A stretch of 64,000 bases of DNA, from the NCBI GenBank assembly GCA_963674745.2, contig CAXXDV010000001.1, positions 384,001 through 448,000 on the forward strand. The letters run 5' to 3'. Numbering within the stretch: position 1 is the stretch's first letter; each line of letters starts with the position of its first letter. Origin of the DNA: Desulfosudaceae bacterium. GTDB taxonomy: Bacteria > Desulfobacterota > Desulfobacteria > Desulfobacterales > Desulfosudaceae. The notes under the pieces are model-generated. The model did no database searches. It saw only the letters and a program-made list of their open reading frames with translations, and was not told the origin of the DNA. Positions 37,593 through 54,800 of the stretch are shown here, piece by piece. Position numbers and translations under genes: made by a program.

Positions 37593-38237
37593 ATGAATTA
37601 TTTTAAAAATCTGGCCGGAAACGGCATAAACGTCGAACCGCCGGAGACAAAGGTCCTGGGGGTCGGCGGAAGCCCCAGGAAAGGCGGTAATTCCGATGTC
37701 CTCCTGGATGGCGTGCTAAAGGGGGTCACCGCCCGTGACATCAGCGCCGTTACGGTTCATCTCCGGGATCATCAGTTTACAGGCTGCATCGGGTGTGAAA
37801 AATGCCGAAAAGATAAAATCTGTACCGGCTTGAAAGACGGCATGTCCCTTGTTTACCCGGACCTGATTGAATCCCGGGGCCTGGTGCTGGCCTGCCCCAC
37901 CCACAACTACAATATCACGGCCTGGATGAAAGCCTTTATCGACCGGATGTATTGTTTTTATCATTTTGATAAAAACCGGCCCCGTGGATGGTCGAGCCGC
38001 CTGGCCGATCAGGGTCGCAAGGCGGTGCTGGTGGCCGTCTGCGAGCAGGTCAATAAAGCAGACATGGGTTTCACCCTTGAGGCCATGCGGGTTCCCCTGA
38101 CCGCCCTGGGATATAAAATCATCGGTGAGCTGCCGGTGTTCGGCATTTTCGACAAAGGAAAAGTCAAAAAACACGACGACATCCTGGCAAAAGCCGGGAA
38201 GCTTGGCGCTGATCTGGCGGAATCGCTTGCGGCGTAA
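37593..38237 (+). CDS. Iron-sulfur flavoprotein / NADPH-dependent FMN reductase family
   Basis: GSPRKGGNS; CIGCEKC..C; PTH..MKAFIDR. Confidence 0.88.
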   Translation: MNYFKNLAGNGINVEPPETKVLGVGGSPRKGGNSDVLLDGVLKGVTARDISAVTVHLRDHQFTGCIGCEKCRKDKICTGLKDGMSLVYPDLIESRGLVLACPTHNYNITAWMKAFIDRMYCFYHFDKNRPRGWSSRLADQGRKAVLVAVCEQVNKADMGFTLEAMRVPLTALGYKIIGELPVFGIFDKGKVKKHDDILAKAGKLGADLAESLAA

Positions 38238-38263
38238 TCTTATTAAAAAAGAAAGGAAAGCCC

Positions 38264-38866
38264 ATGAAAATCATCGGCATCAATGCCAGCCCGAGAAAAA
38301 ACGCCAATACAGAGACCCTGGTGAATACGATGTTGGCGGGCGCCGCGGAAAAAGGCGCCGAAACCCGGCTGGTTAACCTGCGGGACCTGACAATCAACGG
38401 CTGCCGTGGCTGCGAAGGCTGCAAAAAGCAGTTGGGCAAGTGCGTCCAGAAAGATGATTTAACCACCCTGATGCAGGACATGGCCGGTTATGACGCCATT
38501 ATTCTGGGAACGCCGGTATACTGGTACCATGTATCCGCGCAGTTCAAAATGCTGGCCGACCGGCTGTACAGTTTTATCGAGATCAGCGAAGACCCGGAAA
38601 CCGGCGAGCAGTCTTTCAAATCCGCATTTCCGGCCGGCAGAAAAATGGTCCTGGTCATTTCCCGCGGCGATCCGGAACCGCCGGCGGCCTTTTCTCAGTT
38701 TTACGACCACCTCAATGAATGGCTGAACGTTATTCCGTTGTCATTGGGGGCCGGGCACTATGAAATTTTTCATCAATACGGGGCCCACCTGGACCGGAAA
38801 GCGGCCAAAAACGACTCAGACTTGCTTGAAAAAGCCCGGGCCACCGGCGCCGGCCTGGTGGATTAA
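38264..38866 (+). CDS. Iron-sulfur flavoprotein / NADPH-dependent FMN reductase family
   Basis: ASPRKNANT; CRGCEGC..C; GTPVYW..FKMLADR. Confidence 0.88.
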   Translation: MKIIGINASPRKNANTETLVNTMLAGAAEKGAETRLVNLRDLTINGCRGCEGCKKQLGKCVQKDDLTTLMQDMAGYDAIILGTPVYWYHVSAQFKMLADRLYSFIEISEDPETGEQSFKSAFPAGRKMVLVISRGDPEPPAAFSQFYDHLNEWLNVIPLSLGAGHYEIFHQYGAHLDRKAAKNDSDLLEKARATGAGLVD

Positions 38867-38990
38867 GGATAATCCCCCCCATTTGACCCGGATATTTCAC
38901 GAGTCGTTTTAGGCCTTGGCCGCTTGGGCATACCTGCACGGCGCAGGTCGAACATTACATTATCTACCGCGAGCGGCCTGTCTCACAACT

Positions 38991-39127
38991 CGTCATCCCG
39001 CCAGTGGAACAAAGTGGAACGCTGACCGGCGCCACTCCTCGTCATCCCGGCCAGTGAAGCAACGGAACGCCCTCTCTTCGTCATCCCGGCCAGTGGAGCG
39101 AAGCGGAACGTGAGCCGGGATCCAGTA
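38991..39127 (+). repeat. Three tandem REP-like units (CGTCATCCCGGCCAGTGGAGCGAAGCGGAACG...)
   Basis: Units start at 38991, 39040 and 39079. Only the third keeps the closing CCGGGAT arm. Confidence 0.8.
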
Positions 39128-39331
39128 TAAAATTGATATGATACATTCACTTTACAAATGTTCTTTCAAGTGCCTTCCGGACTCCCCTTCAATATATGGT
39201 GGCTTCAAAAATATTGACCCACAAGACCGACCTTGCTATAAATATTGAGGGCTTATAAGGGGTTGGAACGCCACCGGATCATTCCTTGAAACAGATTAAA
39301 AGCGCCTACCGCACAGGGAATTGAATATTTT

Positions 39332-39979
39332 ATGGAATCGCAGGTCATATCAAAGAAACGGGTTGCTGATCATGGCGAAGTATTGACCGGAAACCGTGAG
39401 GTCAACGCCATGCTCGATCTGGTCAAGCAGGAAACAGAACGGATCGAATCGCGGTTTCTTGAACCGGCTTGCGGCACCGGGAATTTTCTGGCCGTGATCC
39501 TGGAAAGAAAGCTGGCGGTGGTCGAAAAGCGATACGGCAAGTCCCAACTGGACTTCGAACGTTACGCCGTCCTCGCTGTTTCATCCATCTACGGCGTTGA
39601 TATTCAGAAAGATAATGTCGAGCACTGCCGGCAACGGCTCTTCGGAATATTTGACCTGGCCTATCTGCGGTTGTTCAAGCACAAGACCAACGACGATTGC
39701 CGGGAGGCGGTGCGTTTTATTCTGGAAAAAAACATCGTCTGGGGCGATGCCCTTGATTTTAAGACCAAAGACAAGCCCCGGATGCCGATTCGCTTTTCCG
39801 AGTGGTCGCCGGTAAACGGCAGCATGCTCAAACGGCGGGACTTCATGTTGTCGTTTCTGGTGGAAAAACAGCATCAAATGCTGCTGTTCAGCGACGAAGG
39901 CGACGTTGCCGACTTAAACGAGCCTGTCAGGGAATACCCCCCGGTCCACTTCCTGGAGATCGCCCATGCTCAACAATAG
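39332..39979 (+). CDS. Small SAM-binding DNA methyltransferase-like subunit (motif I present, no NPPY)
   Basis: SKKRVADHGEVLT; FLEPACGTGNFL; IYGVDI; NIVWGDAL. Confidence 0.75.
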   Translation: MESQVISKKRVADHGEVLTGNREVNAMLDLVKQETERIESRFLEPACGTGNFLAVILERKLAVVEKRYGKSQLDFERYAVLAVSSIYGVDIQKDNVEHCRQRLFGIFDLAYLRLFKHKTNDDCREAVRFILEKNIVWGDALDFKTKDKPRMPIRFSEWSPVNGSMLKRRDFMLSFLVEKQHQMLLFSDEGDVADLNEPVREYPPVHFLEIAHAQQ

Positions 39980-41510
39980 CGGCTACAATCCCGACGTGCT
40001 GTCCTGCATTGCCAACCTCTCCAGTGACGAGGTATTCACGCCGCCGCAACTGGCCAACCGGATTTTAGACCTGCTACCGGCAAAGATCTGGTCCGACCAA
40101 AAAGCCACGTTTCTGGATCCCGGCTGCAAGTCCGGCGTATTTCTGCGGGAGATCGCCAAGCGCCTGGACAAAGGACTGGAGAAAAAAATCCCCGCTCGGC
40201 AGAAACGGATCGACCACATCTTCAAAAACCAGCTTTACGGGCTTGCCATCACCGAACTGACCGCCCTGCTCTCGCGCCGGTCCGTCTATTGCTCCAAGAC
40301 AGCCAACGGCCGCTATTCCGTGTGCGACGCTTTTGACCGCCCGGAAGGCAACATCCATTTTGCGCGGGTGGAACATGCCTGGAAAAACGATCGTTGTCTA
40401 TACTGCCGAGCCGGCAAGAAGACCTACGAGCGGGGCGGTGATCTGGAAAGCCACGCCTATGCCTTTATCCATACAGAAAACCCGGAGGAACTTTTTCATA
40501 TGAAATTTGATGTCATTATCGGAAATCCCCCATACCAGTTGAGCGACGGAGGTTACGGAGAAAGCGCGCGACCGATCTACCACCTGTTCGTTGAGCAGGC
40601 AATGAAACTCAAGCCTCGCTACCTGACGATGATCATTCCCTCCCGATGGTTTGCCGGTGGCAAGGGCTTGGACGAATTCCGCCGCAAGATGCTCCATGAT
40701 CATCGCATTTCCCACCTGGTCGACTATCCCAAACTCTATGACGGATTTCCCGGCGTAAAGATCCGTGGCGGTGTCTCCTACTTCCTCTGGGAACGCGACT
40801 ACGATGGCCCCTGCTCGGTGCAAACCATGTGGGACGGCCAACCGCTCGGCCCACCTATGAAACGGCGCCTGGACACCTACGATGTTCTGGTCCGTCGGAA
40901 CGAGGCGGTCTCCATTCTGGACAAGGTCCGCGCCTACCGTGTCAAAGGAAAGCCTGAGACGACACTGGATGCGCGAGTGTCCTCAATGAAACCATTTGGC
41001 CTACGCACCTTTTTCCATGGCGCTGATTCACCTAAAGGCTTAAAAACTCCGGTGAAGTTATATGGATCACAACGTATTTCTTGGATCGACCGCTCGGACA
41101 TCCCACAAAATCCGGAATGGATTGACGAATGGAAGGTCTTGATGTCACGTGTTCAAGGTACCAGCTCTGCGGTTGAGACTATGTTTCTGAGTAAACCCAT
41201 CATTTCTGGGCCTGGAGAAGCCTGCACGGAGACTTATTTGGTCGCCGGCAGGTTTAAAAGCAAATTGAAGGCCGAACGATATGCGGCATATCTGCGGACG
41301 CGCTTTGTCCGGTTTCTTGTGTCGTTGCGCAAGTCAACACAGGATGCCGCAAAGCATGTCTATGCATTTGTCCCAGACATTCCCCTTGACCGCGAATGGA
41401 CCGACGAAAAACTCTATAAGCGGTATGGCCTGACCAAGGATGAAATCGCATTCATCGAAAAGATCGTCCGCCCGATGCCGGCCGACAGCGACGAGGCAGG
41501 CGATGCCTAA
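39966..41510 (+). CDS. N6-adenine DNA methyltransferase, Eco57I-domain type, with C-terminal target-recognition region
   Basis: DEVFTP; FLDPGCKSGVF; FDVIIGNPPY; IPSRWFAGGKGL; C-terminal LYKRYGLT..EI.FIE. Confidence 0.88.
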   Translation: MLNNSGYNPDVLSCIANLSSDEVFTPPQLANRILDLLPAKIWSDQKATFLDPGCKSGVFLREIAKRLDKGLEKKIPARQKRIDHIFKNQLYGLAITELTALLSRRSVYCSKTANGRYSVCDAFDRPEGNIHFARVEHAWKNDRCLYCRAGKKTYERGGDLESHAYAFIHTENPEELFHMKFDVIIGNPPYQLSDGGYGESARPIYHLFVEQAMKLKPRYLTMIIPSRWFAGGKGLDEFRRKMLHDHRISHLVDYPKLYDGFPGVKIRGGVSYFLWERDYDGPCSVQTMWDGQPLGPPMKRRLDTYDVLVRRNEAVSILDKVRAYRVKGKPETTLDARVSSMKPFGLRTFFHGADSPKGLKTPVKLYGSQRISWIDRSDIPQNPEWIDEWKVLMSRVQGTSSAVETMFLSKPIISGPGEACTETYLVAGRFKSKLKAERYAAYLRTRFVRFLVSLRKSTQDAAKHVYAFVPDIPLDREWTDEKLYKRYGLTKDEIAFIEKIVRPMPADSDEAGDA

Positions 41511-41612
41511 GCCAAAAAACAAAATTCCGGCGGACAAACCGGAGGCGCTTTTCCGGTCGCATTACCGCCCGCGTCAATCTCCAACACCTATGGATAGAAC
41601 AGGAGGTCATGG

Positions 41613-41879
41613 ATGACAAACGACAAGGCCCTGGCCGTATTCGAGAACTTCAAGATCCGGCGACGTTATGACGAAAAATCGGACGTCTGGTATTTTTCCG
41701 TGGTGGACATTATCGCGGCCCTGATCCAGCAGCCGGATCACCAGACCGCACGGAAGTATTGGAATAAACTCAAAGAACGGCTCAAGAAAGAAGGCAGTCA
41801 GTCGGTGACAAATTGTCACCAACTGAAACTGCCGGCCGCCGACGGGAAGATGCGGCTGAAAGGAAGCGAAGATGAGTAA
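41613..41879 (+). pseudogene. Truncated Bro-N/antirepressor-like gene
   Basis: KIRR..WYFSVVDII..ARKYWNKLKERL..EGSQSVTNCHQLKL.A.DGKMRL, then an abrupt stop overlapping the next start. Confidence 0.7.
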
Positions 41880-44430
41880 CGCCTTCTTCCCTCCCCGGCC
41901 TGAATCGCGGCCCACGATTTACGCTTACGAGGATACCCATCCGCAGTACGCGGGTTTGCTCAAGGTCGGGTATACGACCGTGGACGCGCAGACACGCGTT
42001 GCCCAGCAGTATCCGACCCTGCGTCCCGGCGCACCACCCTACCGAATTGTCCTGGAAGAAGCCGCCATGCGCGGCGACGGTACGGTCTTCACCGATCACG
42101 ACGTTCACCGCATGCTGCGGATCAACGGCATCAAGAACCCGCAAGGCGAGTGGTTTTGCTGCACGGTCGCCCAGGTCAAGGCGGCCATCATCGCCGTGCG
42201 CACCGGTCAATTGAACGAGGAAAACCGGTCCCTGGATTTTACCATGCGGCCCGAGCAGGAAGCAGCGGTAGAGAAAACAGCCGCCTACTTCGCCGGCTGG
42301 CGCAAGGATAAGGGCAACCGGAATAAACCGCCGCATTTCTTGTGGAACTGCAAGATGCGTTTCGGCAAGACCTTTGCCGCCTACCAGTTGGCCAAAAAGA
42401 TGGGCTGGCGCAAGGTGCTGGTGCTCACCTTCAAACCGGCGGTGCAAAGCGCCTGGGAAGAGGATTTGAAATGCCACGTAAATTTTGCGGGCTGGCAGTT
42501 TATCAAGCCCGGCGGCCTAACCTATGAACAGGCGAATAAGAAACGGCCGTTTGTCTGTTTTGGTTCGTTCCAGGACTATCTGGGCCGCAACCCCGACACG
42601 GGCGGCATCAAATCAAAGAACGAATGGGTTCATACGACCCACTGGGATTGCGTTATTCTGGACGAATACCACTACGGCGCCTGGCGGGAGACCGCCCGGG
42701 AGCTGTTTGAGGCCGAGGATAAGAAAGAAGTTGCCTTTGGTGTGGGGCAAGGCCTTGAGTTCTTAAAAGAGCGGGACGATAAAATAGCGGACATCATGCC
42801 GATCACCACAAACGGTTATCTCTACCTGTCCGGCACGCCGTTTCGGGCCATTGCTTCCGGCGAATTCATCGAAGAACAGATTTTCAACTGGACTTACTCC
42901 GATGAACAGCGGGCCAAAAACGACTGGAAAGGTTCCGGCAACCCCTACGCGGCGTTGCCAAGGATGGTGTTGCTGACCTACCAGCTGCCGGACGCGATTC
43001 GGGAAATCGCCATGCAGGGTGAATTTAACGAGTTCGACCTGAATATCTTTTTTTCCGCCGAGGGGATCGGCAATAAGGCCAAATTCAAGTACGCGAGCGA
43101 GGTTCAGAAATGGCTTGACCTGATCCGGGGCGCGTTCCTGCCGACCAGCGTCGACAGCCTGAAACTCGGCGCGCGCAAGCCGCCCATGCCGTTCTCGGAT
43201 GTGCGGCTGCTGGGCGTGCTTTCCCATTCCTTCTGGTTTTTACCGAGCGTGGCGGCCTGCTACGCCATGCGCAATCTGCTGGCCAAACGGCAGAACCGGT
43301 TCTACCACGACTACGAGGTCATTGTAGCGGCCGGGAACGCCGCCGGAATCGGCGTGGCGGCCCTGGCCCCGGTCCAGGAGGCCATGGACGATCCCCTGAC
43401 CACCAAAACCATCACCCTTTCCTGCGGCAAGCTGACCACCGGCGTAACGGTCAAGCCGTGGACGGGGATTTTGATGCTGCGCAACTCATCTGTTCCGGAG
43501 ACATATTTCCAGGCGGCTTTCCGGGTACAATCGCCATGGACGGTCCGTAATCCGGGCGGCGCCTCTCCCAATTCCGAGCAGATTATCAAGGAGGAATGTT
43601 ATGTTTTTGACTTTGCGCCGGACCGGGCCTTGCGCCAGATTGCGGATTACAGTTGCCGGTTGAACGTCAATGAAGAGAACCAGGAAAAAAAGGTCGAGGA
43701 ATTTATCAGCTTCCTGCCGGTTCTGGCGTATGACGGCAGTTCCATGAAACAGATCGACGCCGCCGGGATTCTCGACATGGCCATGAGCGGCACGACGGCC
43801 ACCCTGCTGGCCCGGCGCTGGGAAAGCGCCTTGCTGGTGAATGTGGACAACGACACCCTGCATCGCCTGATGGATAACAAAAAGGCCATGGATGCCCTCA
43901 TGAGCATCGAAGGGTTCCGCACCCTGAATCAGGACATCGAGACCATCATCAACAAGTCCGAAGCCGTGAAAAAGGCCCGCAAAGAGGCCAACGACCAGGA
44001 ACTGTCCGCACAACAGAAGAAGGAACTTTCCCAGGAGGAAAAGGAGTACAAGAGCCGCAGAAAACAGATCCAGGAAAAGATCATCAAGTTCGCCACTCGC
44101 ATTCCCATCTTCATGTACCTGACCGACTTTCGCGAGCGGACCCTGAAGGACGTGATTACCCAACTGGAACCGGGCCTGTTCAAGAAGGTGACGGGCCTGA
44201 CCGTGACCGACTTCGAGCTACTGGTCAGCCTGGGGCTGTTCAACAGCGCCTTGATGAATGACGCCATTTACAAGTTCAAGCGATATGAAGACGCCAGCCT
44301 GAGTTACACCGGAATTTACAAACACGAAGGCGAGGACATCGGCCTTTACGATACGGTCATCACCCGAAATGACGCGGCCGGCATATTCGAGAACATTTCA
44401 GCCAACCCCCTCGCCCCACCAAACTCTTGA
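41872..44430 (+). CDS. GIY-YIG (T5orf172-like) nuclease fused to an SF2 helicase; putative restriction subunit
   Basis: IYAY..LLKVGYT..RV..GEWF nuclease motifs; Walker A-like KMRFGKT; DEYH; LSGTP; YFQAAFRVQ; VFDFAPDR. Confidence 0.82.
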   Translation: MSNAFFPPRPESRPTIYAYEDTHPQYAGLLKVGYTTVDAQTRVAQQYPTLRPGAPPYRIVLEEAAMRGDGTVFTDHDVHRMLRINGIKNPQGEWFCCTVAQVKAAIIAVRTGQLNEENRSLDFTMRPEQEAAVEKTAAYFAGWRKDKGNRNKPPHFLWNCKMRFGKTFAAYQLAKKMGWRKVLVLTFKPAVQSAWEEDLKCHVNFAGWQFIKPGGLTYEQANKKRPFVCFGSFQDYLGRNPDTGGIKSKNEWVHTTHWDCVILDEYHYGAWRETARELFEAEDKKEVAFGVGQGLEFLKERDDKIADIMPITTNGYLYLSGTPFRAIASGEFIEEQIFNWTYSDEQRAKNDWKGSGNPYAALPRMVLLTYQLPDAIREIAMQGEFNEFDLNIFFSAEGIGNKAKFKYASEVQKWLDLIRGAFLPTSVDSLKLGARKPPMPFSDVRLLGVLSHSFWFLPSVAACYAMRNLLAKRQNRFYHDYEVIVAAGNAAGIGVAALAPVQEAMDDPLTTKTITLSCGKLTTGVTVKPWTGILMLRNSSVPETYFQAAFRVQSPWTVRNPGGASPNSEQIIKEECYVFDFAPDRALRQIADYSCRLNVNEENQEKKVEEFISFLPVLAYDGSSMKQIDAAGILDMAMSGTTATLLARRWESALLVNVDNDTLHRLMDNKKAMDALMSIEGFRTLNQDIETIINKSEAVKKARKEANDQELSAQQKKELSQEEKEYKSRRKQIQEKIIKFATRIPIFMYLTDFRERTLKDVITQLEPGLFKKVTGLTVTDFELLVSLGLFNSALMNDAIYKFKRYEDASLSYTGIYKHEGEDIGLYDTVITRNDAAGIFENISANPLAPPNS

Positions 44431-44455
44431 CATCATTCCCTTGGTTCACTAATCT
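44427..44455 (+). promoter_or_regulatory. Candidate promoter upstream of the cassette array
   Basis: TTGACA, 17 bp, TAATCT, overlapping the stop codon of the upstream gene. Confidence 0.4.
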
Positions 44456-44600
44456 TTTTAATATTATTTTCGCATAATATCGGGGAGGGAGTGTTTTCAT
44501 GCCGATAAATACGGCCTTATTTCCAATAGCAAGGGATTTTCGCGTTTTGGGCGGTTTTCCATGTTTGCTTCTTAATAATGGTAATAAATGAAAAATGTTC

Positions 44601-44620
44601 TACCTATTACGCTGTTGGGC
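44601..44620 (+). mobile_element. attI-like integron recombination site
   Basis: TACCTATTACGCTGTTGGGC has the same spacing as the attI1 core CCCTAAAACAAAGTTRRRY. Its GTTGGGC is the exact reverse complement of GCCCAAC at the end of the first cassette. Confidence 0.55.
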
Positions 44621-44641
44621 TGCTCATATACACATTTGGAA

Positions 44642-45343
44642 ATGAAAATGGGAAATAAGAAACCAAGGAGTTATACGCAAGAAGATCTGTTAAAACTTTA
44701 TTTGCGCCTTAATGGCTTTTTCATCACTGGTTTTATCGTACATTCACCTGATTTTGGAAAGAATCGAACCGAAATTGATGCTCTCGCCATTCGCTTACCA
44801 CATAATGCAGAACCTGAAAGAGTCTTAGAACCCTCACCTTATTTAGAACCATCCATTGACCTTGTTGATTTTTTAATATGCGAGGTGAAAAGTAAGGGAC
44901 AAAAATTACGGTTCAATGATTCTCTCTGTAACTCTCTATCAGCTATTGAAAGTGTTTTGCGTTGGGGAGGCCTTTTTTGTGAAAAAGAAGTTATAGCGTT
45001 AGCCCCTGAGGTTCAAAATATTATCCAGCAAGCTAACCCATCTAAACAAGAAATACCCATGCTTCTTGGTCCACGAAAAACCCGTATTCGAGCAATTCTT
45101 TGTTCACCGGAAAGATGGAACAAGCGAAGCAATCAACCTTGGTTTATCAACGGTCAAGAAATTTTTGGCTATCTCTGGAAATGCTTTTGTCCAGATGAGC
45201 CGCGCAGCACTTGTTCAACAGTTTATGATTTTACAGCGTGGGGCAAAAGCTATGATCAACTGGTTAGATACTTCAAAGATAGAAAGCGGAAAAATCAATC
45301 ACAAGGCACGATTAATGATCTATATAAAGATCTTGGCATATAG
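44642..45343 (+). CDS. Cassette 1: hypothetical protein with PD-(D/E)XK nuclease-like motif
   Basis: E..LYLRLNGF..EIDALAI..FLICEVKS; AT-rich; bounded by GTTGGGC and an attC. The ORF can extend to ATG 44588. Confidence 0.65.
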   Translation: MKMGNKKPRSYTQEDLLKLYLRLNGFFITGFIVHSPDFGKNRTEIDALAIRLPHNAEPERVLEPSPYLEPSIDLVDFLICEVKSKGQKLRFNDSLCNSLSAIESVLRWGGLFCEKEVIALAPEVQNIIQQANPSKQEIPMLLGPRKTRIRAILCSPERWNKRSNQPWFINGQEIFGYLWKCFCPDEPRSTCSTVYDFTAWGKSYDQLVRYFKDRKRKNQSQGTINDLYKDLGI

Positions 45344-45351
45344 TTACGGCG

Positions 45352-45413
45352 GCCCAACCTTTGCTCTCACGGCGACGGCAAAAAGACGCCGCTCGTGAAG
45401 CTGAGCGTTGGGC
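45352..45413 (+). mobile_element. attC site 1
   Basis: R'' GCCCAAC; L'' GCT(C)TCAC pairs with L' GTGAAGC leaving one extra base; GC-rich inner stem around AAAAA; R' GTTGGGC; 62 bp long, 8 bp after a stop codon. Confidence 0.85.
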
Positions 45414-45447
45414 TGATACTCTGCCCAATAACAAATGAGGAGTCATT

Positions 45448-47955
45448 GTGGTTGATTTCGAAAAATTAAGAACCAAGAAGAAAAAAATGAAGGTTATAGA
45501 ACCCTCTGAAATTTTCCGTCGTTTACCTAAGCCACTTGGAATCAATGATCTCTACACAAGTCAAGCTGAGGTGCTCCATGCTTGGTTTGAAAATCGACAA
45601 GAACGTGACACGGTCATAAAGCTGCATACTGGTGGAGGTAAAACATTGGTTGGCCTTCTTATGGCTCAATCAACATTGAATGAAACTTCAGAACCTGTTC
45701 TTTATTTATCTTCGACAGTCCAACTTGTCAACCAGACTATAGAGAAAGCTATGGCTATTGGCATAAATGCCGTTGCATACGAACGGGGGCAGCCGTTGAG
45801 CGACGATTTCGTAAACGCAAATGCAGTAATGGTCGGCACATATAAGGCTTTATTTAATGGTCGGAGCAAATTTGGTCTTCGGGGTGACCCATTACCTCAG
45901 AGAGTATCAGCAGTCATCCTTGATGATGCCCATGCTGCTTTTTCGGTTGTGCGAGAATCTTTTACACTTGATGTCAAAGCCGAGCTGGATAGGGACAGAT
46001 ATGAATGTTTAGCTGGTTTGTTCCGAAAGGCATTTAAGGAAATAGATAAAATTGGGACATTTGATGATATTCTTGCGGGTTCTGAATATTCTGTTTTGGA
46101 AGTTCCTTATTGGGATTGGCATAAACAAATTGACGCTGTCCGTGAGCAAATAAGATCGGATGCAGACAAATATTCTTTAGTTTGGCCACTTTTAAGAGAT
46201 CAATTGCACCTTTGTCATGCGCTTATAAGCCGTAGTGCTTTCACTGTTACACCGGTACTTCCCCTTGTGAATGCATTTCCAACCTTCTTTGATGCATCAC
46301 GTCGCATTTACATGTCTGCAACAATAGCAGATGATAGCGATATCGTCCGTACATTTGATGCTACACCAGAAGCAGTGCAGAAGCCACTGACTTCTCGATC
46401 GTTGGCCGGTGTAAGTGAACGTATGATTTTGATTCCTGATCTGATGCCTTTCAAATTTAACGTGCCCGATGCGATTAAAAAACTTGTAAGATGGACTTCA
46501 AAGAAAAACCTTGGGGCAATAATTCTTGTCTCATCAGGTAAAGCTGCTGAAAAATGGGTAGAGTGTGCGACTGTTGCAAAGGGCTCTACTGAAGTCGAAA
46601 AACTTGTAGCCGACCTGCAAGAAAGGACAACATCGGGACCTGCTGTATTTGCAAACCGATACGACGGTATCGATTTGCCAGGGGACTCGTGTCGGTTGCT
46701 TGTCATGAGCGGCCTGCCTGCTGGAACATCAAATTACGAACTTTTTCGAGCAGCTGCACTTTTTGGGGGTGCAACAATTACTAGGATGCTCGCCCAACGA
46801 ATTGAGCAAGGCATTGGAAGGGGAGCCCGAGGATCTGGTGATCATTGTGTAGTCCTGCTTGCTGGGGCAGATATCGCAGGCTGGATAGCAAAAGACGCAA
46901 ATTTTAAGCTTTTAACCAACGCCACAAGAGCTCAGCTTGAAATGGGTGCTGAGATCAGCAAGGAAGTGAGCGATCTTAAGGATCTTGCACAAACAATCAA
47001 ACGGAGTTTCGATCGCGATAAAGGATGGGTTGAATATCACGCAGAAACACTCGCTGAACTGGTTGAGGAAGAAGCGCCAGACCAATTGCGTTTTATACAA
47101 GCCGCTGGGGAAAGAAAAGCAATTAATTTATGGATCGACGGCTATCATGGGCAGGCAATATCGAAAATTGAGAAAACGCTGCTTAAAATAAATACTTTGG
47201 ATTTACAAATTTGCGGTTGGATGGAACAATTAGCTGGTCGTATAGCCGATCATTGGGGACACCCTGAACGGGCGGATGATTTCCAGCGACAAGCATTCGC
47301 ACATAATCGTTGCCTAATTCGCCCGAAAGTTATTCCCCCTTATCGCCCGCTATCAACGCCCGGTGCTCAAACGCAGGCAATTGTAAGTCAACTTACTGAT
47401 TATCGATTAAGACGAGGGTTTTTACAGTCTTTTGAGGAGGTTGTCGCGCGTTTACACCATTGCTCATCCGCAAATCAATTTGAACAGGCTTTGGCTGATC
47501 TTGCAATCATGATTGGGTTTTCCTCCGAGCGACATGATGTAAATGGCCAAGGGCCAGATGTATTATGGCTTTTGCCAGAAAAAATTGGATTTGTCATTGA
47601 AGCAAAAAGCCGAAAAAAGGAAAAAAAGGCACTTACTAAAGAGGAGCATGGACAACTCTTAGTCGCTGCCGAATGGTTTAATGCCAACTATAAAGGATAT
47701 GAATGTGTACGTGTGAGTGTGCATCCTAAAAATCAAGCGACCAAAGCTGCCGTTGCAGGTGCATCACACGCCTTAACCTATGAAAAATTAGCGCTCCTTG
47801 TTTCAGATTCTCGTTCTCTTCTTTCTGCTCTTTGCGAGTCCCAACTTCCGGCAGAGAATCTCGTGGCAGAGTGTCAAAGACTTTTATCATGTTCATCAAT
47901 AAAATCAGGAAAAATTATAGAGAATTATTTACTTCCTTTTAAAGAAACTGAATGA
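45448..47955 (+). CDS. Cassette 2: SF2 (DinG-like) helicase with C-terminal PD-(D/E)XK nuclease, Hna-like architecture
   Basis: LHTGGGKT; DDAH; MSAT; RYDGIDLPG; QGIGRGAR; C-terminal GPDVLW..VIEAKS. Confidence 0.78.
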   Translation: MVDFEKLRTKKKKMKVIEPSEIFRRLPKPLGINDLYTSQAEVLHAWFENRQERDTVIKLHTGGGKTLVGLLMAQSTLNETSEPVLYLSSTVQLVNQTIEKAMAIGINAVAYERGQPLSDDFVNANAVMVGTYKALFNGRSKFGLRGDPLPQRVSAVILDDAHAAFSVVRESFTLDVKAELDRDRYECLAGLFRKAFKEIDKIGTFDDILAGSEYSVLEVPYWDWHKQIDAVREQIRSDADKYSLVWPLLRDQLHLCHALISRSAFTVTPVLPLVNAFPTFFDASRRIYMSATIADDSDIVRTFDATPEAVQKPLTSRSLAGVSERMILIPDLMPFKFNVPDAIKKLVRWTSKKNLGAIILVSSGKAAEKWVECATVAKGSTEVEKLVADLQERTTSGPAVFANRYDGIDLPGDSCRLLVMSGLPAGTSNYELFRAAALFGGATITRMLAQRIEQGIGRGARGSGDHCVVLLAGADIAGWIAKDANFKLLTNATRAQLEMGAEISKEVSDLKDLAQTIKRSFDRDKGWVEYHAETLAELVEEEAPDQLRFIQAAGERKAINLWIDGYHGQAISKIEKTLLKINTLDLQICGWMEQLAGRIADHWGHPERADDFQRQAFAHNRCLIRPKVIPPYRPLSTPGAQTQAIVSQLTDYRLRRGFLQSFEEVVARLHHCSSANQFEQALADLAIMIGFSSERHDVNGQGPDVLWLLPEKIGFVIEAKSRKKEKKALTKEEHGQLLVAAEWFNANYKGYECVRVSVHPKNQATKAAVAGASHALTYEKLALLVSDSRSLLSALCESQLPAENLVAECQRLLSCSSIKSGKIIENYLLPFKETE

Positions 47956-47961
47956 ATGAGA

Positions 47962-48021
47962 ACTCAACAATTTGCTGCAAGGGATCGCAAAAAGCCGCTC
48001 CCCGTGAGCAACACGTCCGGC
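47962..48021 (+). mobile_element. attC site 2 (R' degenerate)
   Basis: R'' ACTCAAC; L'' TTGCT(G)CA pairs with L' TGAGCAA leaving an extra G; inner stem around AAAAA; R' GTCCGGC; 60 bp long, 6 bp after a stop codon. Confidence 0.75.
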
Positions 48022-48036
48022 ATAAAGGAGTAGTTC

Positions 48037-49821
48037 ATGAATGATTCCCCACTTATTACTTTGTTTAAAGAACAATTAGAGAATGAATCTTTATCGATAG
48101 CTCAAACCTTAGGATTATCAAAACGTGGGGACCATCTAATATGGTGGTATTTTAGGAAATTATTTGGATTATCTGATGCAGAAATTTCTGAAATAATCTG
48201 CGATGGTGGCAATGATTTGGGCATTGACGCTGTATATATAGATCCTGACAATTATGTCCATTTTTTTCAATTTAAAAATCCAGAATCTGTTGATAATATC
48301 ATGGCTGCAGGGGACATAGACAAAATGTTATCCGGTTTGCATCTTATTTTAGAAAGGAACCATGATAAAATTGCCAATGAAGAATTAAGGGGAAGGGTCG
48401 AAGAAATCTATCAAATCATACCAAATGGGTATCGTATCCATATAATAACATCTGGAAATGAAATTCCTAAAGAATCTAAGATAAAAATAGAATCTTTTAT
48501 TGATAGCCTTCAAGGACCATCAGAGGATTTCATTTCATGGATTGTTGAGAATATAAAATACCTTCAGGATACATTTTACAGGAAATCCCTACCTGTAATC
48601 GAAGACAACATTGTTTTTTCGATCGAAAGGGGAATCCCCTATCAAGTTCGATCGGCAAACCATGATTGTTATATTCTGCATTCTACTGGAAAATTTTTGG
48701 CTGAACTATATGACAAATACGGCGAACAACTTTTGCAACAAAATATAAGGGTTTATCGTGGCGACAGATCAACAAATGCAGCTATAAGACAAACCTGCAT
48801 TGGGGAAGAATCTGCTAATTTTTTTCACTTTAATAATGGCATAACTTTTTTATGTGAAGAGGCCAAATGGGATCAGTTTACGGGTGTTTTAACTCTTAAA
48901 AAGGCGCAAATAGTAAATGGTGGCCAAACAGCACGTGTTATATACCGCTCGTATAATGATGGTAATTTGAAGGGAGATGTTTTAATCCCTATCCGGGTAA
49001 TCACCTCTCAAGGTGATAAGGATTTCGCAAATAACGTCGCTGTGAATCTAAACAATCAAAATACAGTTGAAAGCAGTTTCTTAAGATCGAACCACCCAAG
49101 TATAATCCAGCTTTCGAACTCAATGGCGACACTTGGGTGGTATTTGGAGAGAAGGGAAGATGAACTTAAGTATTTGACGGATGGAGAAAGGCAAGAAATA
49201 GAACAAAAAATTGGCCAATCTTTAGACGGGCATGTTATCCCCATCAAAGCAGGAACCCAAGCCTATGCTGCAACTTTCTATAGACAGCCGGAGTTAGCGA
49301 AAAAAAATCTTAAATTACTATTTATGAATAGAAGTGACAATGGGCATTTTGATAGAATATTTAACGCTAATTTAACTGCTGAAAACTTTTTAAACTCTTT
49401 CAGGATAAAACAACATATTGATGATTATGTCAAAAGATTTGGTACAATGAAAAGAAGAAAAGCAAGAATTGATGGATGGAAAGATGAATACAAAGATTTT
49501 TTAGGTGAATCAATTTACGATAATTATATTGATATCATTGATCAAGTTATCCCTCAATCTGCTGTTTTTGTCACGGCTGTTATTTTTGAAAAAAATGTAA
49601 AAATAAAAGGAGTAAGTGTTGATAATCTATTAGATGTATTAAATGAAAATTCGGATTCTTTAATTAACGGAATCATTTCAAAAATTTTAAATTTTGCAAA
49701 GAATAATCCAGAAGTTGCCAATAAAAGTTGGCCAACTTTATTAAAGAGCCAGACTTTTTTTAATCATATTTGTGCTTATCTAAGTGGCCTTGAAGAAAGA
49801 AGTGCTGAACAAGCGGATTAA
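48037..49821 (+). CDS. Cassette 3: AIPR family (abortive infection phage resistance) protein
   Basis: DGGNDLGIDAV..FQFK N-terminal nuclease-like motif; LLQQNIR; FFHFNNGIT; QIVNGGQT; NNQN. Confidence 0.88.
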   Translation: MNDSPLITLFKEQLENESLSIAQTLGLSKRGDHLIWWYFRKLFGLSDAEISEIICDGGNDLGIDAVYIDPDNYVHFFQFKNPESVDNIMAAGDIDKMLSGLHLILERNHDKIANEELRGRVEEIYQIIPNGYRIHIITSGNEIPKESKIKIESFIDSLQGPSEDFISWIVENIKYLQDTFYRKSLPVIEDNIVFSIERGIPYQVRSANHDCYILHSTGKFLAELYDKYGEQLLQQNIRVYRGDRSTNAAIRQTCIGEESANFFHFNNGITFLCEEAKWDQFTGVLTLKKAQIVNGGQTARVIYRSYNDGNLKGDVLIPIRVITSQGDKDFANNVAVNLNNQNTVESSFLRSNHPSIIQLSNSMATLGWYLERREDELKYLTDGERQEIEQKIGQSLDGHVIPIKAGTQAYAATFYRQPELAKKNLKLLFMNRSDNGHFDRIFNANLTAENFLNSFRIKQHIDDYVKRFGTMKRRKARIDGWKDEYKDFLGESIYDNYIDIIDQVIPQSAVFVTAVIFEKNVKIKGVSVDNLLDVLNENSDSLINGIISKILNFAKNNPEVANKSWPTLLKSQTFFNHICAYLSGLEERSAEQAD

Positions 49822-49879
49822 CTTTGATCCAAAAAACCTGGCGCTTTTTGTGGGTAAGACCAAACGCTACAAATTAGGT
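49804..49879 (+). mobile_element. Degenerate or truncated attC site 3
   Basis: GCTGAAC-aag-CGGATTAAC left half contains the AIPR stop codon; a short hairpin follows. No matching L'; possible decayed R' ATTAGGT at 49873-49879. Confidence 0.45.
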
Positions 49880-49888
49880 GGAAATTCG

Positions 49889-50765
49889 ATGAAAAAGAAT
49901 AGCCAGATGCCGAAATACCATGAGCTCATGAACCCACTTCTTAAAGCGCTTCATGAATTGGGCGGCTCAGGTTCCATTGAAGAGATTGCGCAAAAAGTTT
50001 CAGAATTATCCGGCTTACCGGAAGAGATATTGAATATTCCGCATAACCCGGAAAAGAGCAGTCAGACTGAAATTGAATATCGTTTGGCCTGGGCACGCTC
50101 CTATCTGAAAAAATATGGTTTATTGGACAATTCAGATAGAGGTGTCTGGCTGATTGTTCCTGAAAAACGCGATGTAAAAACGGTTGATCCCCAAGTTGTT
50201 GTAAAAACAGTACGAGACGAACACAAAAAACAAAAAGCGGCCAGCGAAAAGGCAAAAACAGAAGAAGATGTGGAAGACGATATTGAAATTCCGGATGAGG
50301 CTGAGTCCTGGCGTGGCGCCCTCCATCATGTCCTCATAAACGAAATATCGCCGGATGCTTTTGAAAGATTAACAAAAAGAATTCTAAGGGAATCCGGGTT
50401 TGTGCAGGTTGAAGTAACGGGCCGTTCCGGGGATGGTGGAATCGACGGTAAAGGCATCATGCGATTAAGTGGTCTGCTGAGTTTTCACGTAATTTTTCAG
50501 TGCAAGAAATACAAGGGTACCGTTACGCCTCGGATATTCGTGATTTCAGAGGGGCAATGATAGGGCGGGCCGACAAGGGCCTTTTATCACAACAGGCACT
50601 TTTACTCGCGATGCTGTCCGCGAGGCAACAAGGGATGGGGCGCCACCGATCGATCTTGTTGATGGGGACCAGCTCGCGGACAAGTTAAAGGAATTGGGGC
50701 TTGGAATAAAAAAAGAAATGGTCGAAAAAATTTCAATCGATACGGAGTGGTTCAAATCAATATAG
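49889..50765 (+). pseudogene. mrr: Mrr-family type IV restriction endonuclease with two single-base deletions
   Basis: Mrr_N region (EYRLAWARSYLKK.GL); FERL..GRSGDGGIDG..FQCKKY. The continuation ASDIRDFRGAMIGRADKG and then ITTGTFT..PPIDLVDG..WFKSI* needs frameshifts at about 50526 and 50585. Confidence 0.85.
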
Positions 50766-50809
50766 GATGTATCAAGGAAAAAGATAAAGATCGTAGAGGG
50801 AAAAACAGA

Positions 50810-51838
50810 ATGACCCGACCATCCGACACATCCGAAATTGTCCTTTATCAAACCGAAGACGGCAAGATAAAGATTGACACGGTCTTTCAGGACGAAACTA
50901 TCTGGCTGACCCAGGCGAGAATGGCGGAGCTGTTTGACGTCAATGTTCCGGCCATATCCAAACATCTAAACAACATATTTGAAGAGGGAGAACTGCAAAA
51001 AGAGGCAACTGTTTCCAAAATGGAAACAGTTCAACAGGAAGGCAACCGGCAGGTGACCCGGACCAGGGACTTTTATAATCTCGACGCCATCATTGCCGTG
51101 GGTTACCGGGTCAATTCCAAAAGAGCCACCCAGTTCAGAATCTGGGCGACCCATATCCTGAAAGAGTACATTATCAAAGGCTTTGCCATGGATGATGACC
51201 GCCTGAAACAGGCGGACCGATGGGACTATTTTGATGAGTGGCTGGAACGTATTCGGGATATCCGGGCATCGGAAAAACGCTTTTATCAGAAAATTCGGGA
51301 TATTTACGCTACGGCCATAGATTACGATAAAAACTCGGAACAGGCGCAAGTTTTTTTTAAGAAGGTTCAGAATAAAATGCTCTGGGCCATCACCGGCAAA
51401 ACCGCAGCCGAAATTATCGAATCACGAAGCAATCCGGACAAACCCAATATGGGCCTTACCTCATGGCGTGGTTCCATAGTCAGAAAATATGATGTAGGTA
51501 TTGCCAAGAATTACCTGAAGGCAGATGAGATAAAGGACTTGAATGAGATCGTGACCATGTATCTGGATTATGCCGAAAGGCAGGCCCGGCAGAGAAAAAC
51601 CGTGACCATGGAACATTGGTCGGATAAACTCGATGCCTTTCTGAAATTCAATGAGCAGGAATTGTTGACCCATGCGGGAAAAGTGAAGGCGGAAGTCGCT
51701 AAAAAAATCGCTGAAGACCGATACGGAGCGTTTGATAAAAAACGAAAAACAGCCGAGGCCCGAGCGGCTGATGAGGAAGATTTAAAAGCGCTTGAAGAAA
51801 TCGAAAAAATGCTTCTTGAAAAGCGAGATGAGAACTAA
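50810..51838 (+). CDS. RhuM-family (virulence RhuM) protein
   Basis: IVLYQTEDG; ETIWLTQ..MAELF; YNLDAIIAVGYRVNSKRATQFR.WAT; IRDIRASEKRFYQK; AKNYL. Confidence 0.9.
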   Translation: MTRPSDTSEIVLYQTEDGKIKIDTVFQDETIWLTQARMAELFDVNVPAISKHLNNIFEEGELQKEATVSKMETVQQEGNRQVTRTRDFYNLDAIIAVGYRVNSKRATQFRIWATHILKEYIIKGFAMDDDRLKQADRWDYFDEWLERIRDIRASEKRFYQKIRDIYATAIDYDKNSEQAQVFFKKVQNKMLWAITGKTAAEIIESRSNPDKPNMGLTSWRGSIVRKYDVGIAKNYLKADEIKDLNEIVTMYLDYAERQARQRKTVTMEHWSDKLDAFLKFNEQELLTHAGKVKAEVAKKIAEDRYGAFDKKRKTAEARAADEEDLKALEEIEKMLLEKRDEN

Positions 51839-54800
51839 CCCATCAACGATTCCACAATACCCGGCAGCAGTTCCGGGAGCATGGCAATGTCTTTGATGAT
51901 CAGGTACTCTTCCGGGGCGCACATTTTTTTCAGGTAATCGTTGCCGGCCTGGTCGATGGTAATGCAGAACGGTTTGATGTCCAGCCGTTTGGCCTCGATA
52001 AAGGCCATCATGGTGTCGTTCAGCCCGTATTCCCGCGACTTTCTGTCTTCACCATAATCAAGGTCCTGGGGAAAACCGTCACTGAGCAGAATCAACAGGC
52101 GATGGTCGGCCTCAAGGTTGCTTAATTTTGCGGCGGCATGGCGGATGGCCGTGCCCATGCGCGTGCTCTGCTTGGGCTCGATACCGCAGATCCGCATTTT
52201 AACCTTCTCGGAGTTGGTCTCCTCAAAGGATTTGATGACATAATAATCCACGTTTTTTCGACCGCGTCCGGAAAACCCGTACATGGCATACTGGTCACCG
52301 AGCGCGTCCAGGGCTTCGGACATGACGATCAGGCTCTCCTTTTCAATATCGATCACCCGCTTGTCATCCTCGTCCGGGGCGCTGTCCGGCCGGTCGCTAT
52401 CCGTTTGATCCGGGGCGGATATGTCAGACGCCCGGTCTTCGGTGGAAGCGCTCATATCAATCAGCAAAAGGGTCGACATGTGCCGCACTTTTTTGTCTTT
52501 GCGGCAGAACACCCGATCCGAAGGGATTGCCCCGGCCTTTTTGTCGACCACGCTCCGGATCAGGGCCGTCAGGTCGATTTCATCTCCCTGGTCGACATTA
52601 TGGATAATATCCAGTGATGCCGGCCGGATACGCTGAAACTGGAAGCGGACTTTGCGAATCAGGTCGCCGTATTCCGTGTATATCCGGTGATATTGGTCCG
52701 GATCACTCTGGGGCGTCCGCCTTTCTTTGAGGCAACACCACCTGGTCCGGTATTCTTCAGCCAGGTAATCCCACTCATCATAAAAAAACGTTTTCTTTTC
52801 GCTGCGGCCTTTAACCACCGCTTTTCCGGCTTTTATCCGCTGTTTGTTGTCCTTTTTTTCACGGTTGTCTGACTGATCTCCGACATCCCCCTTGACCGTA
52901 AAGTCCTCCAGATCGGAAAGATAAAGCCCTTTTGCGGACGGCGTGAAGTCAAGAGAACTTAACAGGGTCATATCCTGGGTCATATCAAGCAGCCGTTCCA
53001 GCTCTTCCGGCGTCAGGGTGATATCATCGCCCTGACCGGGTTCATCAGCCTCAACGACCCTGTCCGGCACGACATCTTCCAGCCCCTCTCCTGCCGGGCC
53101 GTCCGGCATCCCGTCCATGCGAAGCGATACGGGTAAAATTGTCTTTTGGGTTCTGCGCCGTCCGAGAGCACTCAGGGCGTCATAGATCAGGGCCGTTTTT
53201 TTATATGAATCAAGCACATTTTCCGAATTTAAATGAAAATCAGACACCTGCTCTTTTAAAAAGGCACCGGCGGAAACGAGGGGTTCGGTTGTTTCGATGT
53301 CAACCGGGTAATCAAGGCAAAGCCGCAAAAGCCACTCAAGGGCCGTGCCCAGGAGATTGTTGTAGGGGACCGGCCGCTTTAACATCGATTTTCCGATAAC
53401 GCGCCCGATATCCGGGGCCAGCCCGGGATAATGTTTTCTGAGGTTGCGAAAAACCCTGCCGTCTTCAAGGATATGAAAGATCTCAAGGGCCAGCTCCCTG
53501 TCCGGAAAAGATTCCAGAAGGGACCATATGCCGGCAAATTCGGGGTTCAATGTTCCGAACTCCAGATACCCGGCCTTTAACGCGGCGGCCACCTTATAAA
53601 AACTTAAATTGGCCTCGGCATTGTTCTCTTCGGCAACATATGGCGCCAGATAAAACGTGAACCCGTTTTCATCGGCCTTAAGGCCAAGCCGATTTTTATC
53701 GACAAGGTCCATTTCTTCTCTGCTGCGGATGCGGATTTTTTCTCCGCAGAGCGCCCGGCAGAACAAGCCCAGCATTTCCCGGTTTTGTTCCAGAAAGGCG
53801 GCGTTTCCCCATTTGTCCAGTTCGGCGGCTGAGGCCGGCGAGTTCAGGCGAAAATAAGCCAGGCCATCTTCCGGATTATCTTTGAAAATCGCCACGCCTT
53901 TGCTGACCCAGTACGCCAGAAAAAGAACCGGTATTTGCCCCAAAACCGCTTTAATATTCTGATAATAGGCCAGGCCGACGGCCGCCGAAGCCTCTTCCAG
54001 GCGGCTGTCCATCTTGACAATCATTTCCTGGACCGGATTTGAAAAAAGGGTCAGTGACTGCACCATATCATTAAAAACAGAAAGGATATCTTCAGGCCGG
54101 CCGGATGACAGGTCCATGATTTTTTCCAGAACCACATCGCGCAGGTTGGGGTTTATCCGCCGGACAAGGCCGGGACCGGTTTGGTAAAATTCAACGGCCT
54201 TGTCGGCAAAGGCGGTTGAGGCAATACCGGTAATCCTGAAAATTTTCGTTATTTCAGAAAGGTAAAGCTGATCAAGGCCCTCGGGCGTCAGAGAGAAATA
54301 ACGGGTGGCGGCCTGACCGCTTTGCCTTAACAGAAGGCAGCCGGTTTCCCGCCAGATTTTATAAACCCGTGGGGTGAGAAAGCGCAGCACCCGGCCCGAT
54401 GTGGTTAAAAAAGCGGAAACCGTCTCTTCTTCGGCATGTTCAAGGCCGAAAATCCGGATCGCGTCTGAAGCCAGCTGGTTGATCTGGGGAAACCGCGCGC
54501 TTTCCAGAAATTCCGGGGTGGCGGCAAAATAATCCCCGGCACAGGGAATCGATATTTTTCCGATCCTGATGCCGGCATTGCCCCAGTCTTTAAGGTGATC
54601 AAACCCTTCGTTGCAGAAAAACGGACCGCTTGATTCAAAATAGTGTCGCACCAGGCCGTCGTTTTCCGGAAAGGCCCGGCTGATTTTTTTCCCGGTTGAT
54701 ACCCAGCGGCCATAGTCTTTTTTTGAAAGAACCGCCCGGGCATGCCCGGCGGCCGTTAAAAACGATTTTCCGCAGGCTTCGGATATATCTGTAAAAAAAG

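Follow-up and report, generated by a model that had tools for sequence, protein, structure and literature searches.

A probable integron remnant with three gene cassettes beside a restriction-modification module in a Desulfosudaceae genome

Results

We analysed a 64,000-nucleotide stretch of a Desulfosudaceae genome (G000; contig C1, positions 384001–448000; hereafter the window), which holds a putative integron remnant at 428–434 kb of that contig. Unless a contig or locus is named, positions count from the first letter of the window. On the + strand, adjoining a restriction-modification (RM) module and in the same orientation, come a shortened attI recombination site and three genes, each followed by an attC site or by what appears to be the relic of one. 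An earlier note on this DNA had described such an array, with each site at the 3' end of a co-oriented AT-rich gene; this description holds for all three sites, GC content being 0.34–0.44 across 44.4–50 kb, where the three cassette genes lie, versus 0.52–0.58 in the upstream RM genes.

The intact attC site

The first site, attC1 (45352–45413, + strand), is intact. attC sites span about 57–141 nt; attC1 is 62 nt long and is bounded by an inverse core (RYYYAAC; here R'' GCCCAAC) and a core (GTTRRRY; here R' GTTGGGC) that are perfectly complementary. Folded as DNA, it reached -20.9 kcal/mol on the + strand and -19.4 kcal/mol on the - strand, with z about -4 and none of 200 shuffles folding as well. 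When attCs of class-1 integrons were folded side by side with it, attC1 followed their plan: the R box has seven bases and is separated by a spacer from three L-box pairs, after which a C is left unpaired; more pairs come next, then a GAC motif whose A is unpaired, the loop is short, and the spacer of the 3' arm is the longer one. Its spacers are of 4 and 5 bases, most class-1 sites having 5 and 6, a norm from which arr-2 departs too. The whole is an imperfect hairpin with unpaired R''-L'' bases and an asymmetric spacer, and the hairpin attC that had been proposed at these coordinates is borne out both by this fold and by the model scores that follow.

As stand-ins for IntegronFinder's attC model we built three covariance models, R1 to R3; the software itself describes the E-values it gives with them as rough. 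Class-1 plasmid integrons were found with the resident integron integrase (IntI, encoded by intI) as query, and attCs were located in the eight records obtained. R1, built from five near-identical 60-nt attCs, was set aside as too narrow, missing aacA4, arr-2, nearly all native sites of the genome and attC1 itself. MAFFT alignment of attCs of mixed lengths misplaced their 3' arms, and the models were therefore widened by iterated model alignment: R2 comprises ten class-1 attCs aligned by R1, and R3, for which R2 made the alignment, has 16 rows, of which eleven are class-1 sites, four are native sites of the genome and one is a reverse-strand row. attC1 was absent from every training set. On true sites outside its training set, R2 gave 36.9 bits for aacA4, 28.2 for the OXA-1 cassette and 22.2 for dfrA5, with native sites at 14–25.5 bits; R3 gave 33.0 and 33.5 bits for the untrained arr-2 and arr-3 attCs. 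Across 318 kb, R3 made 225 matches at E<=1, which by our own tally of the match table divide into 203 in 13 array loci of the genome, on a single strand per locus, and 22 in plasmid loci. R3 works as a general attC model. By motif, a strict scan (RYYYAAC...GTTRRRY plus hairpin) beside the three intI genes of the genome found nothing, and a relaxed motif and hairpin scan recovered the native sites of about 125 nt.

With all filters off, R2 placed attC1 first in the 64-kb window, on the + strand and over the full model length (20.0 bits, E 0.005; next match 13.5 bits). R3 scored it at 26.8 bits (E 2.3e-4) on the + strand, which is the gene strand, versus 13.7 on the - strand, the best unrelated match reaching 15.2 bits; in the model alignment, both unpaired bases fall at the model's unpaired positions. 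The attC model search that had been proposed as a check thus put attC1 first on the expected strand, with the score significant under these proxies rather than under IntegronFinder's own model. Integron integrases recombine attC sites with a preference for the bottom strand, and the same would be predicted for attC1.

Hairpins are common after genes, and single attC matches can be false, at 0.03–0.72 per Mb in the figures given for IntegronFinder (PMC4889954), so that an ordinary defence island in which a terminator or repeat element resembles an integron site by chance has to be weighed. We consider this highly improbable: on the + strand no T-run follows the hairpin, a BLAST search of the genome with attC1 returned only the site itself, making the hairpin single-copy, and the model match is joined by separate, agreeing lines in the 5' junction, the attI homology, the relatives and a cassette boundary in a metagenome contig, all described below.

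The attI remnant and the first junction

The sequence at 44431–44640, beyond the end of the restriction gene at 44430, was compared with the segments that separate the resident intI genes from their first cassettes, using 300 shuffles: the local alignment score with the attI of the integron at C3:2348261 was 56, against 20.1 +/- 2.4 for shuffles, and the attI regions of the other two resident integrons gave p 0.10 and 0.16. By BLAST, the homologous part is 78–86% identical to four other attI copies in the genome (C3:2347991-2348215, beside an intI; C1:2265472-2265669; C1:958607-958738; C3:367218-367565), compared with which it lacks 34 nt between two short direct repeats, and a second repeat unit is also gone. 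What is left, at 44555–44620 on the + strand, is one repeat unit of about 45 nt (44555–44600) and a core that, aligned with the resident attI, reads CTATTACGCTG/TTGGGC, the slash marking the crossover between 44614 and 44615. A BLAST search of the genome with the spacer at 44431–44590 returned the self-hit only. An attI lies directly at the start of an intI, and no intI stands beside this one; with homology that includes the repeat unit and a GTT crossover core, we nevertheless regard 44555–44620 as a true attI remnant. The attI-like core placed earlier at 44601–44620 is the end of this longer, real attI, because the same attI type is found at four other places in the genome, where it heads other arrays, and in the relative G002 too, where it heads one.

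Integration chemistry predicts that the 5' edge of a cassette is complementary to its own R''. GTTGGGC stands at 44614–44620, GCCCAAC at 45352–45358 and GTTGGGC again at 45407–45413; the 5' edge of cassette 1, TTGGGC from 44615, thus pairs perfectly with the GCCCAA of the cassette's R''. That the cassette starts with GTTGGGC and ends with its reverse complement had been claimed before and is confirmed at 44614 and 45352. On the same strand, 0.008–0.0095 copies of GTTGGGC would be expected by chance in the 184–214 nt before the gene.

Two decayed sites

The other two sites are of a different quality. In the second (attC2*, 47962–48021, + strand), R'' (ACTCAAC), a spacer of five bases and the first part of the L box survive; the stem is broken and R' has mutated to GTCCGGC. 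Folding of 47955–48030 gave z values of -0.45 and -0.84, and 64 and 42 shuffles out of 200 did equally well. The third (attC3*, 49804–49874, + strand) has a conserved 5' half and has lost its 3' arm and R', the R' position reading GCTACAA; folding of 49795–49880 (z +0.22 and -0.63) was no better than shuffles. R3 matched neither at E<=10 in the 6.4 kb from 44300 to 50700, where the weakest listed match had 5.5 bits, and BLAST searches of the genome with site 2 and with 49800–49880 returned self-hits only. Neither site, in short, shows the hairpin, the GTTRRRY core or the model score of an attC, and the hairpin attC with a GTTRRRY end that had been described at 47962–48021 does not stand.

Both sites do have homologues that such models match. 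Site 2 resembles attC1 (local alignment p 0.001) and is 90% identical over 51 nt to C1:1931881-1931931 of a relative from another genus, G007, where R' GTTGGGC is retained; that G007 site scores a marginal 13.7 bits (E 0.36) and lies 1.6 kb before an attC of 33.2 bits on the same strand. Site 3 matches a 71-nt G007 attC (L028:1410-1480, 20.2 bits) at 38 of 42 positions (p<0.0005). A reading of GGATTAAC at 49812 as an R'' box was rejected, because the G007 model alignment put it in the L'' region. On this homology we read sites 2 and 3 as fossils, decayed homologues of G007 attC-model matches rather than attCs. The half site that had been seen at 49804 thus holds as a relic and fails as a site, with neither fold nor model match, and the claim that site quality drops away from attI is upheld, 26.8 bits being followed by two sites under the 5.5-bit floor.

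An apical GAC.GCAAAAAG motif is common to attC1, site 2, one G007 site and three sites in native arrays of the genome; the short attC family to which attC1 belongs occurs at three places inside those arrays.

Integrons elsewhere in the genome

Three intI genes pass the curated TIGR02249 cut-off (C3:27977-28915, C1:2117407-2118342 and C3:2348261-2349205), none of them in the window; indeed, at E<=0.001 TIGR02249 matches nothing within C1:384001-448000, in keeping with the earlier statement that the window has no tyrosine recombinase. The locus is in that sense integrase-less and the genome is not, and the genome-wide intI search that had been suggested revealed integrases that could act in trans.

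About 200 attCs lie elsewhere in the genome, mostly of about 125 nt, in arrays that fill eight assembly regions. Their spacing is mostly 0.4–1.5 kb, and the window cassettes, of 0.8, 2.6 and 1.9 kb, are several times longer than most cassettes there; by BLAST, the window sites fall outside the dominant attC families of about 125 nt. Like these sedentary integrons, the window locus has the attI type of the C3:2348261 integron and the short attC family found inside arrays; unlike them, it has sites outside the families of about 125 nt, no adjacent intI and longer cassettes.

At C1:2265472-2265669 a full copy of this attI type follows immediately on the stop codon of an unrelated gene; it stands at the head of an attC array of about 24 kb that has no intI, a second and larger instance of attI outlasting the integrase. 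At C3:367178-367565 another attI copy of this type adjoins an intI fragment that scores 35.8 bits and is interrupted by two stop codons, in what looks like a dead integron platform. attI has been kept while intI was lost more than once in this genome.

As a separate observation, four near-identical tyrosine-recombinase open reading frames (ORFs) of 255 aa (C1:1739981, C1:2102784, C1:2282749 and C3:2332314) are placed in cassette arrays or next to them, and behind each comes a 70-aa piece that has a TAA stop; they may be a mobile element that targets arrays.

Metagenome contigs and the second cassette boundary

Contigs of public runs, which show presence and boundaries and not rare events such as excision, were aligned on 38000–52000. 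A 2949-nt contig from an oil-field metagenome (X6) aligns over 45407–47970 with 194 differences, beginning at the G of the attC1 R' and ending in the site 2 R''. Immediately ahead of 45407, 30 letters resemble the attI core of the family (TTTTTCCA...TAATACT). Because the homology breaks at 45407, the attC1 crossover, the helicase unit of the window has a cassette boundary; because that unit stands alone behind a different attI-like sequence, cassettes appear to move singly. Contigs from a digester metagenome (X4) cover 45433–47970 and have the same right end as X6.

In the source-sample run (X1), depth was 106 over 45005–45471 versus a baseline of 6.5, with loose ends at 45356 and 45398–45403; attC1-type sequence is therefore repeated in the source community. 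A single low-depth joint, 44995->49980 (depth 2.6, side 21), was not used.

These boundaries bear on the possibility that only the first gene is a cassette, a single attC unit put by IntI at a genomic GTT in an event of attG or SALIN type, with the helicase and the AIPR gene being ordinary island genes. Such a reading fits the passing of attC models by one site only, and insertion of cassettes at GWT sequences outside integrons (attG sites) is documented (10.1101/2022.09.11.507474). It would leave unexplained, however, that the sequence before the junction is homologous to the resident attI rather than a random GTT context, that the X6 homology breaks at 45407 and so gives the helicase unit a cassette boundary, and that sites 2 and 3 are homologous to G007 attC-model matches, one of them marginal at 13.7 bits. 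We regard it as improbable.

The RM module and its neighbours in two relatives

The RM module (39332–44430, + strand) comprises methyltransferase ORFs at 39332–39979 and 39966–41510 and a T5orf172/ResIII helicase-type ORF at 41872–44430; it matches the Pfam families Eco57I, N6_Mtase, MmeI_Mtase, T5orf172 and ResIII and the PADLOC models for a type II methyltransferase and a type IIG restriction endonuclease-methyltransferase. It is 88–92% identical in G007 and G002, the homology stopping at the stop codon (44431). In G007 (one contig) the order is a PDC-S45 gene, an attC of 27.6 bits, an OLD-like ATPase with SduA, an attC of 20.2 bits, 20 nt and the RM module; in G002 it is an AriAB-like gene, a weak attC match of 12.6 bits, an AbiU gene, an attC of 23.2 bits, about 20 nt and the RM module. 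The sequence that these two genomes share before the ATG of the module begins at G/TTGGCC behind two different attCs, which makes the module cassette-like at its 5' edge. The comparison of related genomes that had been proposed thus did reveal turnover, the same RM module standing beside different attC-bounded defence genes.

G002 also has a copy of the attI, followed by one cassette and a 129-nt attC, and encodes three intI, none on the contig of the RM module. At E<=1e-30 no intI was found in G007. That genome, although without an integron integrase, has two attC-bounded sets of defence-type genes (L054:15127-19417, with PDC-S45, OLD-like and SduA genes, and L058:8388-11545); at the second G007 locus, an HNH/zinc-finger gene is followed by an attC, a TIR-domain gene with another ORF, and a further attC.

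The relatives also bear on whether the array was assembled in another organism and came as one foreign block, its attI likeness reflecting a shared integron lineage. The homology with relatives ends exactly at the RM stop codon, the PDC-S28 helicase gene was not found among the 40 relatives searched, and the GC drop described above coincides with the array. The cassettes are, however, unlike each other in GC (about 0.43 and 0.35), the attI remnant is 78–86% identical to four attI copies of this very genome, and the PDC-S28 unit stands alone in X6 behind a different attI-like sequence. Arrival as one block therefore seems unlikely to us, if the least unlikely of these alternatives.

The cassette genes

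Cassette 1 (44615–45407) holds a gene of about 231 aa, p251 (44645–45343, + strand). Its start is most likely at about 44645–44651 rather than at 44588, because homologues align from there and the collection entry has 231 aa; the junction therefore lies about 30 nt upstream of the start codon. The protein matched nothing in Pfam, PADLOC or NCBIfam, and its 78 homologues, named hypothetical protein where the source names them, include none with a Pfam domain. An alignment of 32 sequences shows no variation at residues D44, E79 and K81. For its AlphaFold (AF2) model (pLDDT 91.1), Foldseek gave no match at E<=0.001, and a sequence-profile search of the PDB with the family gave nothing; a wide structural search returned almost only PD-(D/E)xK nucleases at Z 2.9–6.3, among them AF1548 (6.3), the FokI cleavage domain (5.0), VRR-NUC (4.7), HamA (4.6) and MspJI (4.2). 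These model-based matches are weak singly and coherent jointly, suggesting an unnamed family of PD-(D/E)xK fold and making a nuclease effector plausible; a role in defence would follow from context only. An attC-like look, by eye, of the sequence upstream of the p251 copy at L017 was rejected, the model score being <=11.5 bits.

Cassette 2 (45408 to about 48015, 2.6 kb) holds an 835-aa helicase gene (45448–47955, + strand). Its full-length match is to PDC-S28, a candidate single-gene system in PADLOC (E 2.2e-277), and it also matches the Pfam families DEAD, ResIII and Helicase_C_2. The gene of cassette 3 (48037–49821, + strand) encodes a 594-aa AIPR or AbiU-like protein (Pfam AIPR, E 2.9e-32; PADLOC AbiU, E 3.1e-39). 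That all the cassettes look like anti-phage genes, as the earlier note had it, is accordingly supported for the second and third, and p251 matches no defence family.

Downstream and upstream neighbours

After site 3 lies an Mrr-type restriction gene (49889–50560, + strand) that is apparently shortened, matching Pfam Mrr_N and only positions 1–63 of the 115 of Mrr_cat; it may be an older cassette or a mere neighbour. Other contigs of the source sample have single-base insertions at 50525 and 50581, and the window copy is probably frameshifted. In X4, an Mrr-like contig (about 89% identical) is preceded by ...CAACGTTATAC.., an attC-type 3' end with an attC-like R', near the place at which the window has the decayed R' of site 3. 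A RhuM/PDC-S05 gene follows the Mrr gene (50747–51838), with a 91% identical copy elsewhere in G007 (C1:813077-814128); the R3 scan of the window detected no attC next to it, and it is another mobile defence-island gene.

Just upstream of the RM module, beside two 29-nt direct repeats, lies a repeat element of about 69 nt (39079–39147, also 39032–39099). It has 29 BLAST hits in its own genome, dozens at 85–97% identity in the relatives G001, G002, G003 and G009, and very high contig depth in run X1; it may be a miniature inverted-repeat transposable element (MITE)-like repeat. A generic repeat search of the window found nothing relevant to the array, and a consensus scan for promoters and terminators gave the same counts as in shuffles.

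Discussion

We conclude that the locus is very probably a degenerate integron platform, with a shortened attI that has no adjacent intI and three cassettes co-oriented with the RM genes. The idea of a stranded defence-cassette array at a restriction locus, with which the earlier note had ended, is sustained by the agreement of the attC model, the attI homology, the X6 boundary and the turnover in relatives. Each cassette would then have come in when its folded attC recombined site-specifically with attI, the cut falling between G and TT. The catalyst was presumably an integron integrase like those that other parts of the genome still encode, and possibly a resident IntI acting in trans. The newest cassette would be that of the PD-(D/E)xK-fold gene, first in the array and with a textbook attC, and the distal cassettes with the PDC-S28 helicase and the AbiU-like AIPR gene would now be fixed in place because their attCs have decayed. 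The cassette genes are most likely independent single-gene anti-phage systems, with transcription probably reading through from the restriction operon or starting at promoters within the array.

Several observations weigh against this reading. Of the three sites, attC1 alone is recognised by an attC model, the other two having no fold. R2 is the only fully independent test, because one row of R3 (L043:451-512) belongs to the short attC family. No attC was found 3' of the RM module in any of the three genomes, and the consensus scan found no promoter-like site on the + strand of 44300–46307. Among metagenome contigs with PDC-S28 homologues (66–86% identity), six of seven had no attC at E<=2, and this helicase thus lies mostly outside integrons; the seventh and closest contig had one weak attC match, of 15.5 bits. 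Likewise, five genome loci with p251 homologues showed no array, the two that were scanned (L017 and L018) reaching 11.5 bits at best. At L018:7983-14515, in a Pyrinomonadaceae metagenome-assembled genome, a 43% identical p251 homologue lies between dnaN and Tn7-like tnsD, TniB and transposase genes, as if it were cargo of a Tn7-like transposon.

Phage-defence cassettes of integrons have been described only recently, mostly from Vibrio and from clinical mobile integrons, and the locus is a new example of an already known kind of element. A complete integron in IntegronFinder's sense joins an intI and at least one attC in one locus, and the window locus, far from all three intI genes, does not. 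CALINs are defined as at least two attCs less than 4 kb apart, on one strand and with no intI nearby, and may originate by loss of intI, by rearrangement or by insertion at secondary sites (PMC4889954). A CALIN-type cluster had been proposed here; formally it would need at least two attCs within 4 kb, and only one passes our proxy models, a count that could differ under the more sensitive local search of IntegronFinder. A SALIN is defined as a lone attC that accompanies its gene where no integrase is close by (10.1101/2022.09.11.507474), and this is found here, with an attI remnant and two fossil sites that exceed the definition; because one attC is model-detectable, the locus is formally a SALIN with attI. 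In the published descriptions on which we draw, CALINs and SALINs likewise have attC cassettes without a nearby intI, as here in a genome that also has complete integrons; the window locus differs in keeping an attI at the head of the array and in having fossil sites that those tools would not count.

The anti-phage cassettes of mobile and chromosomal integrons known as BRiCs have homologues outside integrons, and a defence island with a pseudo-attC site is described with them (10.1101/2024.07.02.601719). As in that account, anti-phage genes are stacked here as integron cassettes in an array; the window cassettes differ in being large, in sitting beside an RM module on a platform without an integrase, and in being linked to defence by family likeness only.

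An environmental lineage thus shows the same logic as the known defence cassettes, with counterparts in two relatives: across three genomes, one of them without an integrase, the same RM module sits in attC-bounded arrays whose defence genes differ. A defence island can be an integron fossil in which the attI is still readable, and single-gene systems of up to 2.6 kb can be cassettes. The locus supplies candidates, the unnamed PD-(D/E)xK-fold family and PDC-S28, placed where defence genes would be expected. Its first cassette is well preserved, and its attC and attI form a pair suited to recombination assays with a non-model integrase. More tentatively, and less likely than not, the short attC family with its AAAAAG loop might be the mark of anti-phage cassettes of unusual size, ranging from 0.8 kb up to the 5-kb RM module. 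These would form a pool that circulates in this bacterial family and in wider anaerobic communities, and integrases working in trans would place them at attI stumps and at sites in the genome. If this is true, defence islands would be built by integrases in trans even in genomes that encode no integrase, such as G007.

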